Below, piece after piece: positions 15,751 through 55,209 of a DNA stretch of 64,000 nt. Below the pieces are notes generated by a model. It made no database searches. It was not told where the DNA came from and saw only the letters and a list, made by a program, of their open reading frames with translations. The stretch's first letter is position 1. Each line of letters opens with the position of its first letter. The position numbers and the translations under genes are program-made. Location: contig OZ240215.1 of assembly GCA_965197585.1 (NCBI GenBank), positions 992,001 through 1,056,000 of the forward strand, given 5' to 3'. The DNA comes from Dehalococcoidia bacterium. GTDB lineage: Bacteria; Chloroflexota; Dehalococcoidia; Plut-88900.

Positions 15751-15809
15751 CAGTTTTGCCAATACATCGCCCTCACCCCCCGCCTCCACCCCAGCCCCCC
15801 TGTCATTCC

Positions 15810-16865
15810 TGTAAGTGTTAGGTAATTCGTTGACAGATTGGTATAAGAGGCCAACACCAATCTGGAGGCGAGAATGCGAGACAATAGCAAGGACCTCACC
15901 CTTGAACGGAACTACATTCAGAAGTGGCGGTTCCTCATCCATGAGTATCAACTGGTCAAGGCAGGGAAGCATCCCCGTTTCCGCTTCGCCCAGGACTTCT
16001 ACTCCTTCCACGGCACTAGCCGTCAGACCTTCGCCAAGTACTACAACCGGTTCCTCCTTTCCCCCTCCGACAACGCCTTCCTCCCCCGTAAGCGGGGTCC
16101 CGGGTGGAAGTCCCGCCGCACCCTGCCCTACATTGAGCAGAAGGTCATCAACGAGCGCCTTAACGGTACCAACCGTTACGAGATCTATGCCATACTCAAA
16201 CCCATCCTTAAACACAACACCCCTAAGCCCTCCACCATCTACGCCATCACCAGACGCCACGGTTTCAATAGGCTCACAAAGCCGATGCAGCAGTCGAAGC
16301 GCAAGATCATCAAGACCCGGGCAGGAGAGCTGGGCCACCTGGACAGCCACCACCTCAGCCGGGATACCATCGTGGGCACCAAGCACCGCTACTACCTGGT
16401 GGGCCTCATCGACGCCTACACCCGTCTGGCCTGGGCCGAAGTGGTCGGAGACATCAAGAGTCTCTCCGTTATGTTTGCTACTCTGAAGTCCATCAATTTC
16501 CTTAACGTGGAGTACGGCATCCAATTCGAGGCCATCCTCACCGACAACGGCCCCGAGATGGCCTCCCCAAGGAACACCGAGGGCCACCCCATGGAACGGA
16601 TGCTCAATGAGCTGGGCATAAAGCACCGCTACACCCGACCCTATAGGCCCCAGACCAACGGGAAGATAGAGCGGTTCTGGAGAACCTTGAACGAGGACCT
16701 GCTGGAGGGGACAACCTTCGAATCGGTCTCGGAACTGAAGGACGAGCTTCAGCAATACCTGATCTACTACAATACTCAGAGACCCCACCAGGCAATGGAC
16801 GGAAAGACCCCTTTGGAGACCCTTAAATCCACCTAATTCTGTCAACGAATTACCTGACATCCACA
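15810..16865 (+). mobile_element. IS481-family insertion sequence, 1056 bp, apparently intact
   Basis: 28-bp imperfect TIRs TGTAAGTGTTAGGTAATTCGTTGACAGA (15810-15837) and TCTGTCAACGAATTACCTGACATCCACA (16838-16865); TGT...ACA ends; 5-bp target duplication ATTCC. Confidence 0.9.
15874..16836 (+). CDS. IS481-family DDE transposase (integrase core)
   Basis: GELGHLD, LTDNGPE, PYRPQTNGKIERFW, YYNTQRPHQ. Confidence 0.92.
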   Translation: MRDNSKDLTLERNYIQKWRFLIHEYQLVKAGKHPRFRFAQDFYSFHGTSRQTFAKYYNRFLLSPSDNAFLPRKRGPGWKSRRTLPYIEQKVINERLNGTNRYEIYAILKPILKHNTPKPSTIYAITRRHGFNRLTKPMQQSKRKIIKTRAGELGHLDSHHLSRDTIVGTKHRYYLVGLIDAYTRLAWAEVVGDIKSLSVMFATLKSINFLNVEYGIQFEAILTDNGPEMASPRNTEGHPMERMLNELGIKHRYTRPYRPQTNGKIERFWRTLNEDLLEGTTFESVSELKDELQQYLIYYNTQRPHQAMDGKTPLETLKST

Positions 16866-16907
16866 ATTCCGAGGCTCCGCGAGGAATCCGGGGGGCAGCG
16901 TCCTGTC

Positions 16908-16944
16908 CCCTCTCCCTTTGATGGGAGAGGGCTAGGGTGAGGGT
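16908..16944. repeat. REP-like palindrome CCCTCTCCC...GGGAGAGGG..GGGTGAGGG
   Basis: CCCTCTCCCtttgatGGGAGAGGGCTAGGGTGAGGGT. Confidence 0.65.
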
Positions 16945-16963
16945 GATCCTACTTGGCAAATTG

Positions 16964-17625
16964 TGACACGAACCCCTTGACTACATTGAAACATGTGTAC
17001 TATATTCACTCCCGACTAGCCAGTCACACACCCTAACCCCAAAGGAGGAACCCAAAACCCAAGGGGAAGCCCAGCCCCGGCCCCCGAGGACTCAACGTCT
17101 AAGCCCATCCCAAAGAGCGACGCGCGCCGCTCCATGGCTCAAGCAAACCACGCCATCTCCTCGTACAAAGGCCCCGGCTATCCCCTTCCCCCCGCCCCAG
17201 GCGATAGAAGACGCCCTGGTTCGTTAAGTTCCCATAGTGCCTTTCTGCCCTCTATCTCAACAGAGGGTCTCGTCCTTTTGGCAGCCGCCGGAGCCTCTTA
17301 ACCGCTCCCCAACGCTGCTCTGTCCGGAACGCCGCCGCTCCCCGCTCCAGGATGCGCCGGCGTATAGTGGCCCTGGCTGCGCCTCACAGCGTGGAACGTC
17401 CGCCCCTGGCGGACATTGCGGCCATTCTTTGAGGAGCCTGGCTCGAACTGTCGGCTCGAACCGGTCGCCCCGTGCGCCGAGCGCATGAGAACGCCAGCCG
17501 ACGCGTCCCAGCCCCCGGGCGCCGAGCTATAGATGCACTGAAACAGGGGCAGCGTCCAACGGGCGTCTTCCATCGCCAAACCCCAGCAAAACAACCGGAA
17601 CTTCAACCTCACAACCGAATATCGT
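16964..17625 (+). ncRNA. Candidate structured non-coding element, copy 1 of 2
   Basis: Homologous to 54395-55082; no shared ORF; inverted repeat 17200-17216 / 17561-17577. Confidence 0.4.
16977..17006 (+). promoter_or_regulatory. Sigma70-like promoter with LexA-like box (copy 1)
   Basis: TTGACT-18 nt-TATATT; AAAC-ATGT-GTAC abuts the -10; same arrangement at 54408-54437. Confidence 0.55.
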
Positions 17626-54194: not shown

Positions 54195-54212
54195 TCTTAC
54201 CCACCCCCCGCC

Positions 54213-54360
54213 GTCATTCCTGCGGAGGCAGGTCGCAGATGCGCCAAGGCGTGAAACCATCCCTCCTGAAGGCGCACCCCCCGCCGAGCCGGAATCCATC
54301 CCTGGGGCCGAGGGGCCGCTCACCCTGAGCTCCGTCGAAGGGTCGAGCGGGGGGGGGCCG
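54213..54360. repeat. Cluster of REP-like palindromes, homologous to 15604-15750
   Basis: GTCATTCCTGCGGAGGCAGG; CCGCTCACCCTGAGCTCCGTCGAAGGGTCGAGCGGGGGG. Confidence 0.7.
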
Positions 54361-54394
54361 CACTTGCCGACCCGTCGCGCCCGCCCCCCAAAAA

Positions 54395-55082
54395 TGACAC
54401 GAACCCCTTGACCAAACTTGTACACATGTACTATATTCACCCCCGATAGGCCAATCACTCACCCTAAACCCAAAGGAGGAACCACAACCCAGGGGGAAGC
54501 CCACCCGACCCCACCCGAGGACTCAACGCCTAAGCCCATCCCAACGGCCCTCGCGCAGGCCCGCGGCACAAGCAAACGACGCCATCTCCTCTTACCGGGC
54601 CCCGTGCCCCCTTCCCTGACCACTAGGCGATGGAAGACGCCCTGGACCGTACTTGAAAGTCTCCTTACGGAGCAACCTTGTCCTATGGAGCGGAACGGGG
54701 CAGCCCGTAGCCGAGGCCCGCTCGGCTCTCCGTCCGCTTCCTCAAATAAACTGGGCTGCCGTCGTCTCCCGGCTCCGGGACATCGTCGGCTAACTGGATA
54801 CCCCGTACTCCTGCGAGGGGAACTGACCCTGGACTTTCCCCTTCCTGCACCCGCCTCCGGCGGACAGCGCAGCCAACCCTGTATCGGAGCCTATGACGGA
54901 TGACGGACCCGTACGTCCGACCATACTTCCAGGTCTAGGCGGCGGCGGAGCCCCGTCCCCACGTTCCCGGGATGCCTCCATGCCCGCATTATCTAAATAT
55001 AGGGAGCCGAATCCGGCAAGCGTCTTTCATCGCCTTCCCCCTACTACACCAAACCGAAACCCCAACACCCAATCGAAGATGG
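54395..55082 (+). ncRNA. Candidate structured non-coding element, copy 2 of 2
   Basis: Homologous to 16964-17625; inverted repeat 54625-54640 / 55020-55035. Confidence 0.4.
54408..54437 (+). promoter_or_regulatory. Sigma70-like promoter with LexA-like box (copy 2)
   Basis: TTGACC-18 nt-TATATT; GTAC-ACAT-GTAC at 54420-54431. Confidence 0.55.
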
Positions 55083-55209
55083 AACATCCGCCTCTGGAGG
55101 ACTGAATAACCCACCCCCCTCACCCGAGGGGAGCCTGTCCGCCTTAGGCGGATCATTCCCGACCCCGATCGTGACTCCCTGTGTTGGAAGACGCCTTGGA
55201 ACGTAGTGG

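Follow-up and report, generated by a model that had tools for sequence, protein, structure and literature searches.

Paired arms inside a genus-specific, promoter-bearing, partly mobile repeat that probably stems from a terminase-like operon in a Dehalococcoidia bacterium

Two long-range inverted repeats, each enclosing a different interior, lie in a 64,000-nucleotide (nt) stretch of a Dehalococcoidia genome (assembly GCA_965197585.1, contig OZ240215.1, positions 992,001 to 1,056,000), here called the window. Analysis of the genome and of its relatives showed that these two arm pairs belong to a much larger, previously undescribed repeat family. The arms are probably the conserved inner inverted repeat of a genus-specific, promoter-bearing, partly mobile repeat that arose from a terminase-like operon. 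An earlier note on the window had proposed that the arms either close a variable RNA domain, in the manner of retron a1/a2 repeats or of an RNase III processing stem, or serve as recombinase sites for an invertible or exchangeable cassette. The readings as a retron and as an invertible switch are not supported. A coarse full-text literature search, in which subscription journals were not covered, found no publication on such a repeat family.

Both arm pairs were located as the earlier note had claimed (Table 1). In copy 1, 16 of 17 positions pair, with one A.C mismatch, and copy 2 contains one G.U pair. In a pairwise alignment, the two copies matched not only in the arms but also in a promoter-like region, in ~200 nt of leader, and in ~60 nt of tail. 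Their interiors align poorly, and the patchy interior similarity noted earlier holds for these two copies. The host genome is a single contig of 3,429,519 bp with 59% G+C. A two-round nhmmer search of the whole genome with the leader gave 80 matches, 57 of which were full-length units, here called family A. The genome-wide arm search that the earlier note had proposed found the motif as inverted pairs ~330 to 550 nt apart. The arm 15-mer, with no more than one mismatch, occurred 29 + 31 times in the genome compared to 1 + 2 times for a reversed control. A convergent arm pair, 325 to 553 nt apart, was present in all 57 full-length units, and both arms were present in 64 of 64 further nonidentical copies taken from sister genomes. 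Single or noncomplementary arms in homologs, which would have spoken against the proposal, were not seen in these 57 and 64 copies.

In a DNA search, 8 of 8 genomes from the same genus contained family A, compared to 0 of 32 genomes from elsewhere in the family and class. The units are ~0.7 to 1.0 kb long and have a constant order: a GTGACAC motif, a sigma-70-like promoter, a C/A-rich leader, the left arm, the core, the right arm, and a C/A-rich tail. The promoter columns CCCCTTGAC and TA.TAT are at least 95% conserved in the 57 copies. The same GTGACAC...TTGAC promoter type also serves one tRNA gene and a few protein genes. The leader is noncoding and ~200 nt long; the block AAGGAGGA is present in it, and a start codon behind the block is absent. 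Together with a sister family, family B (see below), there are ~70 units of 0.7 to 1.0 kb each, which make up about 1 to 2% of the genome.

Table 1. Parts of the two family A units in the window (window positions)
Feature	Position	Strand	Remarks
Copy 1 upstream motif GTGACAC	16963-16969	+	
Copy 1 putative promoter	16977-17006	+	-35 TTGACT, 16977-16982; -10 TATATT, 17001-17006
Copy 1 conserved leader	17013-17199	+	
Copy 1 left arm GGCGATAGAAGACGCCC	17200-17216	+	From sequence and minimum free energy (MFE) fold
Copy 1 core	17217-17560	+	Singleton type c7
Copy 1 right arm GGGCGTCTTCCATCGCC	17561-17577	+	From sequence and MFE fold
Copy 1 C/A-rich tail	17578-17622	+	Ends CCGAATAT; without right-end module
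Copy 2 upstream motif ATGACAC	54394-54400	+	Family consensus GTGACAC, conserved in 57-copy alignment; 7 nt before -35
Copy 2 putative sigma-70-like promoter	54408-54437	+	-35 TTGACC, 54408-54413; -10 TATATT, 54432-54437; predicted to be active
Copy 2 C/A-rich leader	54444-54624	+	Conserved; indels between copies not multiples of three
Copy 2 leader element AAAGGAGGAA	54472-54481	+	Without start codon behind
Copy 2 leader block CCCGAGGACTCAACGCCTAAGCCCATCCCAA	54514-54544	+	
Copy 2 left arm AGGCGATGGAAGACGC	54625-54640	+	Paired with 55020-55035 in MFE fold
Copy 2 core	54641-55019	+	Type c1, by clustering; 10 members in genome
Copy 2 right arm GCGTCTTTCATCGCCT	55020-55035	+	
Copy 2 C/A-rich tail	55036-55109	+	CCGCC-N3-GGAGG hairpin unit; last letters CTGAATAA
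Repetitive extragenic palindrome (REP)-like sequence CCC..CCCGAGGGGAGCCTGTCCGCCTTAGGCGGATCATTCCCGACCCCGATCG	55110-55171	+	Behind copy 2; near-identical one after the stop codon of terminase-like gene 1

Further analysis of the arms supported the earlier proposal of a conserved long-range helix around a variable domain, as their complementarity survives changes on both arms. First, the inner 5 nt of the arms are AGACG or GACGC opposite GCGTC in 51 copies and GGTCC opposite GGACC in 27 copies; a GACAC/GTGTC pair was also seen, in single copies. Second, arms matched with their own partners form 1667 Watson-Crick pairs, compared to 1543 ± 13 (maximum, 1579) in 300 permutations, a figure that overstates independence because the copies are related to each other. 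Third, the mean arm-arm duplex energy is -34.9 kcal/mol, compared to -13.6 kcal/mol with a shuffled right arm. Fourth, the helix extends past the common arm into type-specific sequence, for instance, CTGGA/TCCAG or GACTA/TAGTC. Finally, in the MFE fold of each arm-to-arm stretch in the window, the arms form the closing helix. On the plus strand, the z scores of these folds were -3.1 (copy 1) and -4.1 (copy 2), with 0 of 100 shuffles as good; on the minus strand, they were -1.65 and -3.5, respectively. In the outer 10 nt of each arm, the sequence itself is conserved, beyond complementarity. The arms may act as a closing helix in RNA or as a site in DNA.

As judged by sequence comparison, families A and B descend from a chromosomal terminase-like operon. 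Two full-length genes of this kind (457 to 463 amino acids [aa]) are present in this genome, at loci L252 (G000:C1:1115500-1121000) and L253 (G000:C1:2870000-2875500), and there are 1 to 4 per genome across the genus, at differing positions. In each parent operon here, the promoter is followed by open reading frame 1 (ORF1), which encodes 132 aa without a family match, then by a small ORF2, and last by the terminase-like gene. The operon promoters, GTGACACGGACC.ATTGAC...TATATT, are of the same GTGACAC...TTGAC...TATATT type as those of the units. The arms are found in frame in both full-length genes, as ACGATGGAAG/CTTCCATCGT, 386 nt apart, and GACGATGGAAGGT/ACCTTCCATCGTC, 382 nt apart, and are 100% complementary over 10 nt and 13 nt. 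Conservation of the repeat is stricter in the derived units, as it occurs in 121 of 121 of them compared to 7 of the genus's 16 full-length genes, in which a seed of ≥9 nt was required. At the homologous place, no inverted repeat was present in the terminase-like genes of two other genera. The GGTCC/GGACC arms are the gene-like version, and the GACGC/GCGTC arms, which both window copies carry, are a derived version that required changes on both arms.

The interior of the gene, with the arms removed, gave direct nhmmer matches to 14 family A cores (types c2, c6, c8, c9, and c10) and to 10 family B interiors, and shuffled gene interiors gave 0 matches. Types c3 and c1 were recruited at iteration 2 and c5 afterwards; c0, c4, c7 (copy 1), and c11 were never recruited by the terminase-derived profile in 6 iterations. 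A compositional similarity of family B to the terminase-like protein is unlikely because the nucleotide matches are 72 to 90%. At the protein level, residues 34 to 192 of a family B ORF align to residues 196 to 359 of a 464-aa protein (E = 5e-23, 36% identity). The copy 2 tail, which ends GAATAA, and the REP-like sequence that follows it match the stop region of terminase-like gene 1. By eye, the family B start codon seemingly corresponds to the ORF1 start. The units look like internal-deletion derivatives of the parent operon.

The parent protein is predicted to combine an ATPase with the RNase H-like nuclease fold of a large terminase. Its AlphaFold model has a mean pLDDT (predicted local distance difference test) of 56, with 70 to 92 in the nuclease part. 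The top Foldseek matches were large terminases (T4 gp17, 2.4e-10; HK97, 2.4e-8), and the best match of the nuclease domain was to phage G20c, with a template-modeling score of 0.65. Among the 32 matches with E ≤0.001, the best-ranked ones to E 4.6e-4 were all large terminases, their complexes, or their domains. The protein has a mean column identity of 63% over 21 sequences, and its blocks ARQGGKNE and DESQD, which we take to be Walker A and B, are invariant. Matches to PHROG terminase large subunits were weak (E = 7e-6 to 0.017). Pfam Terminase_6C scored 15.6 bits, below the cutoff of 22.6, and a few database homologues carry a precomputed PF17289. Searches of NCBIfam, PADLOC, and PDB sequences gave no match for this protein or for ORF1. 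It has more than 3600 database relatives, and the sources that give it a name all call it "hypothetical." A class search with the family B ORF found a match in 110 of 301 Dehalococcoidia genomes (a count that includes the unpublished genome G243), one each in most, in frames of ~450 to 540 aa. The parent thus seems to be a conserved, unnamed terminase-like ATPase-nuclease, with a match to the family B query in at least one third of the sampled Dehalococcoidia genomes.

The parent is predicted to resemble phage TerL in being a two-domain ATPase-nuclease of ~460 aa whose closest folds are solved large terminases. It differs from TerL in being highly conserved, in being "hypothetical" wherever it is named, and in its surroundings, where no head genes were noticed in the ORF lists. 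The ORF lists of the 5.5-kb loci, whose neighboring ORFs were not family scanned, revealed no portal or capsid gene, and the ORF lists of the parent loci of two other genera had no further large ORF on the strand of the gene. The sequence CTCCCG, which stands around terminase-like operon 1, was rejected as a target duplication because it is part of a sequence common to operons 1 and 2. The operon has a left-end-like sequence in common with the units, and no right end was found.

Family B consists of 14 loci (L229 to L242, e.g., G000:C1 3021950-3023700) with the same promoter type and a different leader, which contains AAGGAG-N4-ATG. Its frames are 220 to 455 codons long and start MSRTSL.RPRR.RAV. 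Read from the ATG, frame 0 stays open for 750 nt in 10 of the 14 loci and is interrupted by a single stop in 3 more, and the other five frames have 1 to 17 stops. Genus-wide, nearly all family B matches are stop free. Differences are spread evenly over the codon positions (6043:5733:6401), and 1955 of 10572 differing codons are synonymous. Family B keeps its frame, not its amino acid sequence. Public gene calls contain at least 471 family B-like proteins, all without a name or a Pfam domain, and the family B ORFs had no match in Pfam, PHROGs, PADLOC, NCBIfam, or PDB sequence searches. It appears that a gene for a phage-type DNA-packaging enzyme has been turned into multicopy elements that are noncoding, or frame open but sequence unconstrained.

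For family A, a coding reading was rejected. No ORF is shared within any core type, no ORF inside any unit has a coding score above 10 (codon model), and most cores have stops in all frames. Core lengths do not fall into one modulo-3 class, with differences of 1 to 2 nt within types. Type c1, to which copy 2 belongs, likewise has stops in all frames and lengths that differ within the type by other than multiples of three.

It could be argued that the units are functionless, decaying pseudogene copies of the terminase-like gene and that the arms came along as a chance repeat. In a gene of 1.4 kb, an inverted repeat of 10 nt is close to what chance would produce, and these genes contain other repeats of 10 to 13 nt. 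The interior variation looks unconstrained, and the even codon positions of family B point the same way. We nevertheless regard decay as very unlikely. The arms are in all of the derived units compared to fewer than half of the parent genes, and they have been lengthened to 15 to 17 bp and changed on both sides. In addition, the promoter is kept in all copies, and the family B frame has stayed open in 10 of 14 loci, with stops in the other five frames.

A subset of the units has the appearance of transposons. Many units run past the tail into a right-end module, GGCCGGTGTGTCACTAATCTACCGAACGAGTACA, and 17 units start with (T)GATCCCGTTCACATAGAG, which lies shortly before the GTGACA motif. Complete units have TG...CA termini with imperfect terminal inverted repeats of ~30 bp. 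Compared by eye, TGATCCCGTTCACATAGAGGGGTGACA.. (left end) and TGTACTCGTTCGGTAGATTAGTGACA.. (right end, reverse complemented) have TG..C.CGTTC...TAGA...GTGACA in common over ~30 nt. The ends were analyzed in 22 units with both motifs and flanks, 14 from this genome and 8 from sister genomes, at ~15 distinct sites. When the 5 nt before TG were compared with the 5 nt after CA, 5 of 5 agreed in 12 units, 4 of 5 in 7 units, and 3 or fewer in 3 units, compared to 1.0 to 1.7 matches on average in slid and permuted controls. The absence of a target-site duplication beside the arms, which the earlier note had observed correctly, follows from this arrangement, since the arms are internal and the duplication is at the outer ends of complete units. 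The strings TTG at +5 behind the right end, mostly as TTGAC, were found in 13 of the 22 units.

A good example of a filled and empty pair, and the one clean case, is the sister-genome unit L071, which corresponds to an empty site at G000 2384001-2384208. The empty site reads ...GC TTTCG TTGACAGC..., with a single TTTCG directly before TTGACA, and the filled site has TTTCG on both sides. A second, less clean pair is L083 compared with G000 1494730-1494900. For this subset, the comparisons indicate that complete units are nonautonomous mobile DNA, inserted 5 bp before -35 boxes and oriented toward the gene. Miniature inverted-repeat transposable elements are usually under about 0.5 kb; the complete units here, at ~0.9 to 1.0 kb end to end, do not fit that size. 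In unit E660607p, an unrelated 1.3-kb insertion sequence (G000:C1:659340-660650, transposase on the minus strand) sits inside the promoter, between GTGACA and the -35 box.

The window copies differ from these complete units. Both lack the right-end module and face convergent neighbor genes, for an M24 peptidase (copy 1) and a DUF6295 protein (copy 2), and for these reasons both are probably old, immobile members that retain promoter and arms. Among all 57 units, the downstream gene is co-oriented in 45, usually 70 to 450 nt past the right arm, and convergent in 12, including the two in the window; one of these 12 in fact has a co-oriented tRNA gene behind it. In addition, 32 of the 57 have a divergent gene on their upstream side. 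The downstream genes belong to many unrelated Pfam families, among them nine Amidohydro_2 genes and genes for LeuRS, Glu/Gln-tRNA synthetase, UvrA, major facilitator superfamily (MFS) transporters, peptide deformylase, Lgt, and FAD synthetase. A riboswitch or other cis-regulator of one gene class was rejected because of this variety of families.

Exchange of the interiors was apparent when the cores were compared. The 57 cores fall into seven multimember types (12, 10, 9, 7, 6, 6, and 2 members) and five singletons. Type c1 has 22 distinct members across genomes with a mean identity of 0.92. The description of the core as fast diverging in the earlier note thus fits the two window copies but not the family as a whole, in which cores group into types. 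Among sister genomes, the site that is orthologous to that of copy 2 holds the same unit in G002 and G005 (97% and 91% identity), a unit with a similar leader and a different core type in G003, and, in G001, a family B-like unit (L224, G001:C1:1412289-1413360) with three tandem repeats of ~62 nt (GCGGATGCCTGCGGCA.TGCGCCGCGGATGA...). Since the sister genomes carry units with differing interiors there, the site appears to have been occupied since before these species split, with the interior replaced afterwards. The simplest cause of the replacement would be recombination between paralogous copies. Of the proposed exchangeable cassette, the differing interiors stand, and recombination between paralogues fits them equally well. 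Cores acting as antisense guides were rejected, as a BLAST search of the masked genome matched family members, the two terminase-like genes, and a short REP-like motif only.

These data bear on the idea that the arms are DNA sites at which a site-specific recombinase inverts or exchanges the core. The different interiors at the copy 2 site are what such exchange would leave, and the units combine promoter subtypes, arm classes, and core types in various ways. The idea is, however, highly improbable. An all-against-all BLAST of the 57 cores of the assembled genome gave 0 minus-strand matches, and an invertible cassette was rejected on this ground. The same arms lie in frame within intact, conserved protein-coding genes, and the helix continues into type-specific sequence past the common arm. 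The sole integrase-like protein among the 57 downstream neighbors is one rve-type insertion-sequence transposase. Homologous recombination via the ~250 nt of leader and ~60 nt of tail explains the exchange without special sites.

The retron comparison, in which the arms would be the a1/a2 repeats of an msr-msd RNA, is almost certainly wrong. The likeness, which extends to rRNA-type RNase III stems, is architectural only: a long-range inverted repeat around a structured noncoding segment behind a promoter. Family A differs from both in its 57 copies per genome and its arms derived from a coding gene. No reverse transcriptase domain was found in any of the 57 downstream neighbors (upstream neighbors were not scanned), there was no match to an Rfam retron family, and the enclosed 325 to 553 nt derive from a terminase-like gene. 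A blastn search (word size 11) of phage and plasmid collections, which had been suggested earlier, gave no match for copy 2.

A further possibility is that the units are genes for trans-acting, structured noncoding RNAs: a stable RNA of ~650 to 750 nt in which the arms form a closing or processing stem (e.g., an RNase III site), with mobility and terminase ancestry merely the way in which the genes arose. All 57 units retain promoter, leader blocks, and arms, and a minority retain the outer transposon ends. The arms covary, the window folds beat all of their shuffles, and within-type alignments contain 3 to 14 compensatory pairs each. The 12 units that face a convergent gene, both window copies included, cannot be its promoter. 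The core is also covered by RNA-library contigs. We nevertheless consider this explanation somewhat unlikely. Rfam gave nothing at gathering scores in the whole window and only chance-level matches at E up to 10 in both copies. G.U mismatches are strand symmetric in arms and cores, most variation at predicted pairs breaks them (see below), and the minus strand folds too. Moreover, the outer 10 nt of the arms are conserved beyond what complementarity needs.

The RNA-library contigs come from three studies, one of them labeled a sponge metagenome, and cover the copy 2 core; strand, ends, and level are not readable from them. They may be a faint sign of transcription. A contig from RNA-library run X17 joins position 54358 to 55066 with 9 other letters between, so that the whole unit is skipped; its short side is 27 nt with 90% likeness, and it may come from another organism or repeat, from an empty-site relative, or from a repeat chimera. 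It was not used.

Returning to the reading that we favor, of arms as the inner repeat of a terminase-derived and partly mobile unit, its parts are as follows. The units have retained the promoter type of the operon, the apparent ORF1 start, a segment of the nuclease domain, and the stop codon region, and the arms were inherited from two in-frame places, the codons for D-G-R-F and G-S/P-S-I-V. The leader, the core, and the tail would be transcribed from the unit promoter. In the resulting RNA, a helix of 15 to 17 bp formed by the arms would close off the terminase-derived domain, in the manner of a stem for processing or stabilization, and transcription may run on into the gene behind the unit where one lies there. 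Cores would be reshuffled among copies by recombination via the conserved leader, arms, and tail. We infer promoter activity, pairing of the arms in RNA, effects on downstream genes, and the agent of mobility. The family carries a promoter of its own that looks strong. Units with intact ends lie 5 bp upstream of the -35 boxes of unrelated genes (tRNA synthetases, uvrA, transporters, and many amidohydrolases), a position from which the family could alter the expression of dozens of genes simultaneously.

Two kinds of known elements are comparable. Among bacterial miniature inverted-repeat transposable elements with promoters, the Correia repeat-enclosed elements of Neisseria are described in a review (PMC10969869) as multicopy, nonautonomous, intergenic elements with terminal inverted repeats and a target duplication; they carry sigma-70-like promoters, are often found just upstream of genes, and have inverted repeats that RNase III cleaves once they have paired in the RNA. 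Family A is alike in being multicopy, nonautonomous, and intergenic, with terminal repeats, a target duplication, a promoter of its own, and a position before genes. The differences are that family A units are ~0.9 to 1.0 kb, compared to about 100 to 200 bp for Correia elements; that family A has a 5-bp duplication with TG...CA ends, whereas Correia elements duplicate TA; that the pairing repeat of family A, the arms, is internal rather than terminal and its interior is apparently terminase derived; and that family A inserts at a fixed distance from the -35 box.

Pack-MULE-type elements of plants are internally deleted, nonautonomous transposons that carry gene fragments. By analogy, the family A interior may be seen as a rearranged fragment of a cellular or phage-type gene that would be transcribed from the element, and many derived copies stand beside 1 to 4 full-length parents per genome. 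Unlike in that case, the full-length parent here, for which no right end was found, is not known as a transposon or transposase gene.

An additional explanation, which we consider unlikely, is that the orphan terminase-like operon is an active partner and the ~70 units are its cis-acting sites, formed by the ORF1-start leader and the paired arms. In one version, the ATPase-nuclease would be a transposase of a new type, acting on elements that have TG...CA termini and duplicate 5 bp; a second version would make the units pac- or cos-like recognition or cleavage sites, distributed over the chromosome, for a domesticated DNA-packaging or DNA-cutting system. An active partner would fit because the gene has 1 to 4 copies at differing places in the genus, with mostly one match per genome elsewhere, and because the outer 10 nt of the arms are conserved in sequence and no strand-specific RNA signal was seen.

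Several findings weigh against the favored reading, that is, against a promoter-bearing, mobile, terminase-derived unit with an RNA-pairing inner repeat. First, the strand tests (duplex energy and G.U counts) gave no strand signal. Over 55 distinct arm pairs, 22 mismatches would be G.U on the plus strand compared to 21 on the minus strand, and 71 of 121 units have a more stable duplex on the minus strand than on the plus strand. Second, variants at predicted core pairs in six core types were mostly pair breaking (441 of 653, with 59 compensated and 153 G.U), and pair-keeping transitions (191) were not above pair-breaking ones (175). This conclusion rests on the 191:175 split at paired sites; a control with unpaired sites was not used, as it is confounded by base composition because the loops are C/A rich. 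The plus-strand RNA is thus without a sign of selection, and the interior fold is unsupported by variation. Because the G.U mismatches are strand symmetric and the interior variants mostly break pairs, the closing helix is the only part of the structure that variation backs.

Third, the tie of the window cores to the terminase gene is weak in copy 2 (65 nt at iteration 2, E = 2e-4) and absent in copy 1 through 6 iterations. Fourth, both end motifs with flanks were found in only 14 of the 57 copies of the genome and in neither window copy, and no autonomous partner, having the same ends and a transposase, was found. Fifth, the left-end motif GATCCCGTTCACATAGAGGGGTGACATCACCCCCTTG stands alone upstream of the groES-groEL promoter (G000:C1:3404940-3405440), and for this reason the left end may in part be a promoter-upstream element, beyond its role as a transposon end. 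Sixth, DNA carryover is possible for the RNA-library contigs on the copy 2 core, and depth on type c1 cannot be read as expression because the type is multicopy. Finally, the data on neighboring genes are limited by gene calls that came from a simple codon score script and not from a standard gene finder. The groES-groEL promoter also has an inverted repeat, TTAGCACTC-N9-GAGTGCTAA, presumably like the controlling inverted repeat of chaperone expression (CIRCE).

Some other features of the window adjoin the units. An IS481-like insertion sequence (window 15803-16880) with an rve-type transposase ORF (15874-16836) lies directly upstream of copy 1; its terminal repeats are TGT.AGGTAATTCGTTGACAGA, and the same element also follows family member E2681846m. 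It was rejected as the partner of the units, as its termini differ from the unit ends. The hairpin unit (T)CCGCC-N3-GG.GG(A), at 55077-55103 in the window, is present in 0 to 3 tandem copies between CCACAA and CTGAATAA in most family tails, and similar hairpins are also found inside cores and family B leaders. Dense, GC-rich, REP-like palindromes flank the units (window 54204-54400, 55110-55171, and 16850-16950) and recur genome-wide in two types, GTCATTCC...GGAATC and GAGGGGAGCC..GTCCGCC.TAGGCGGATCATTCCC.

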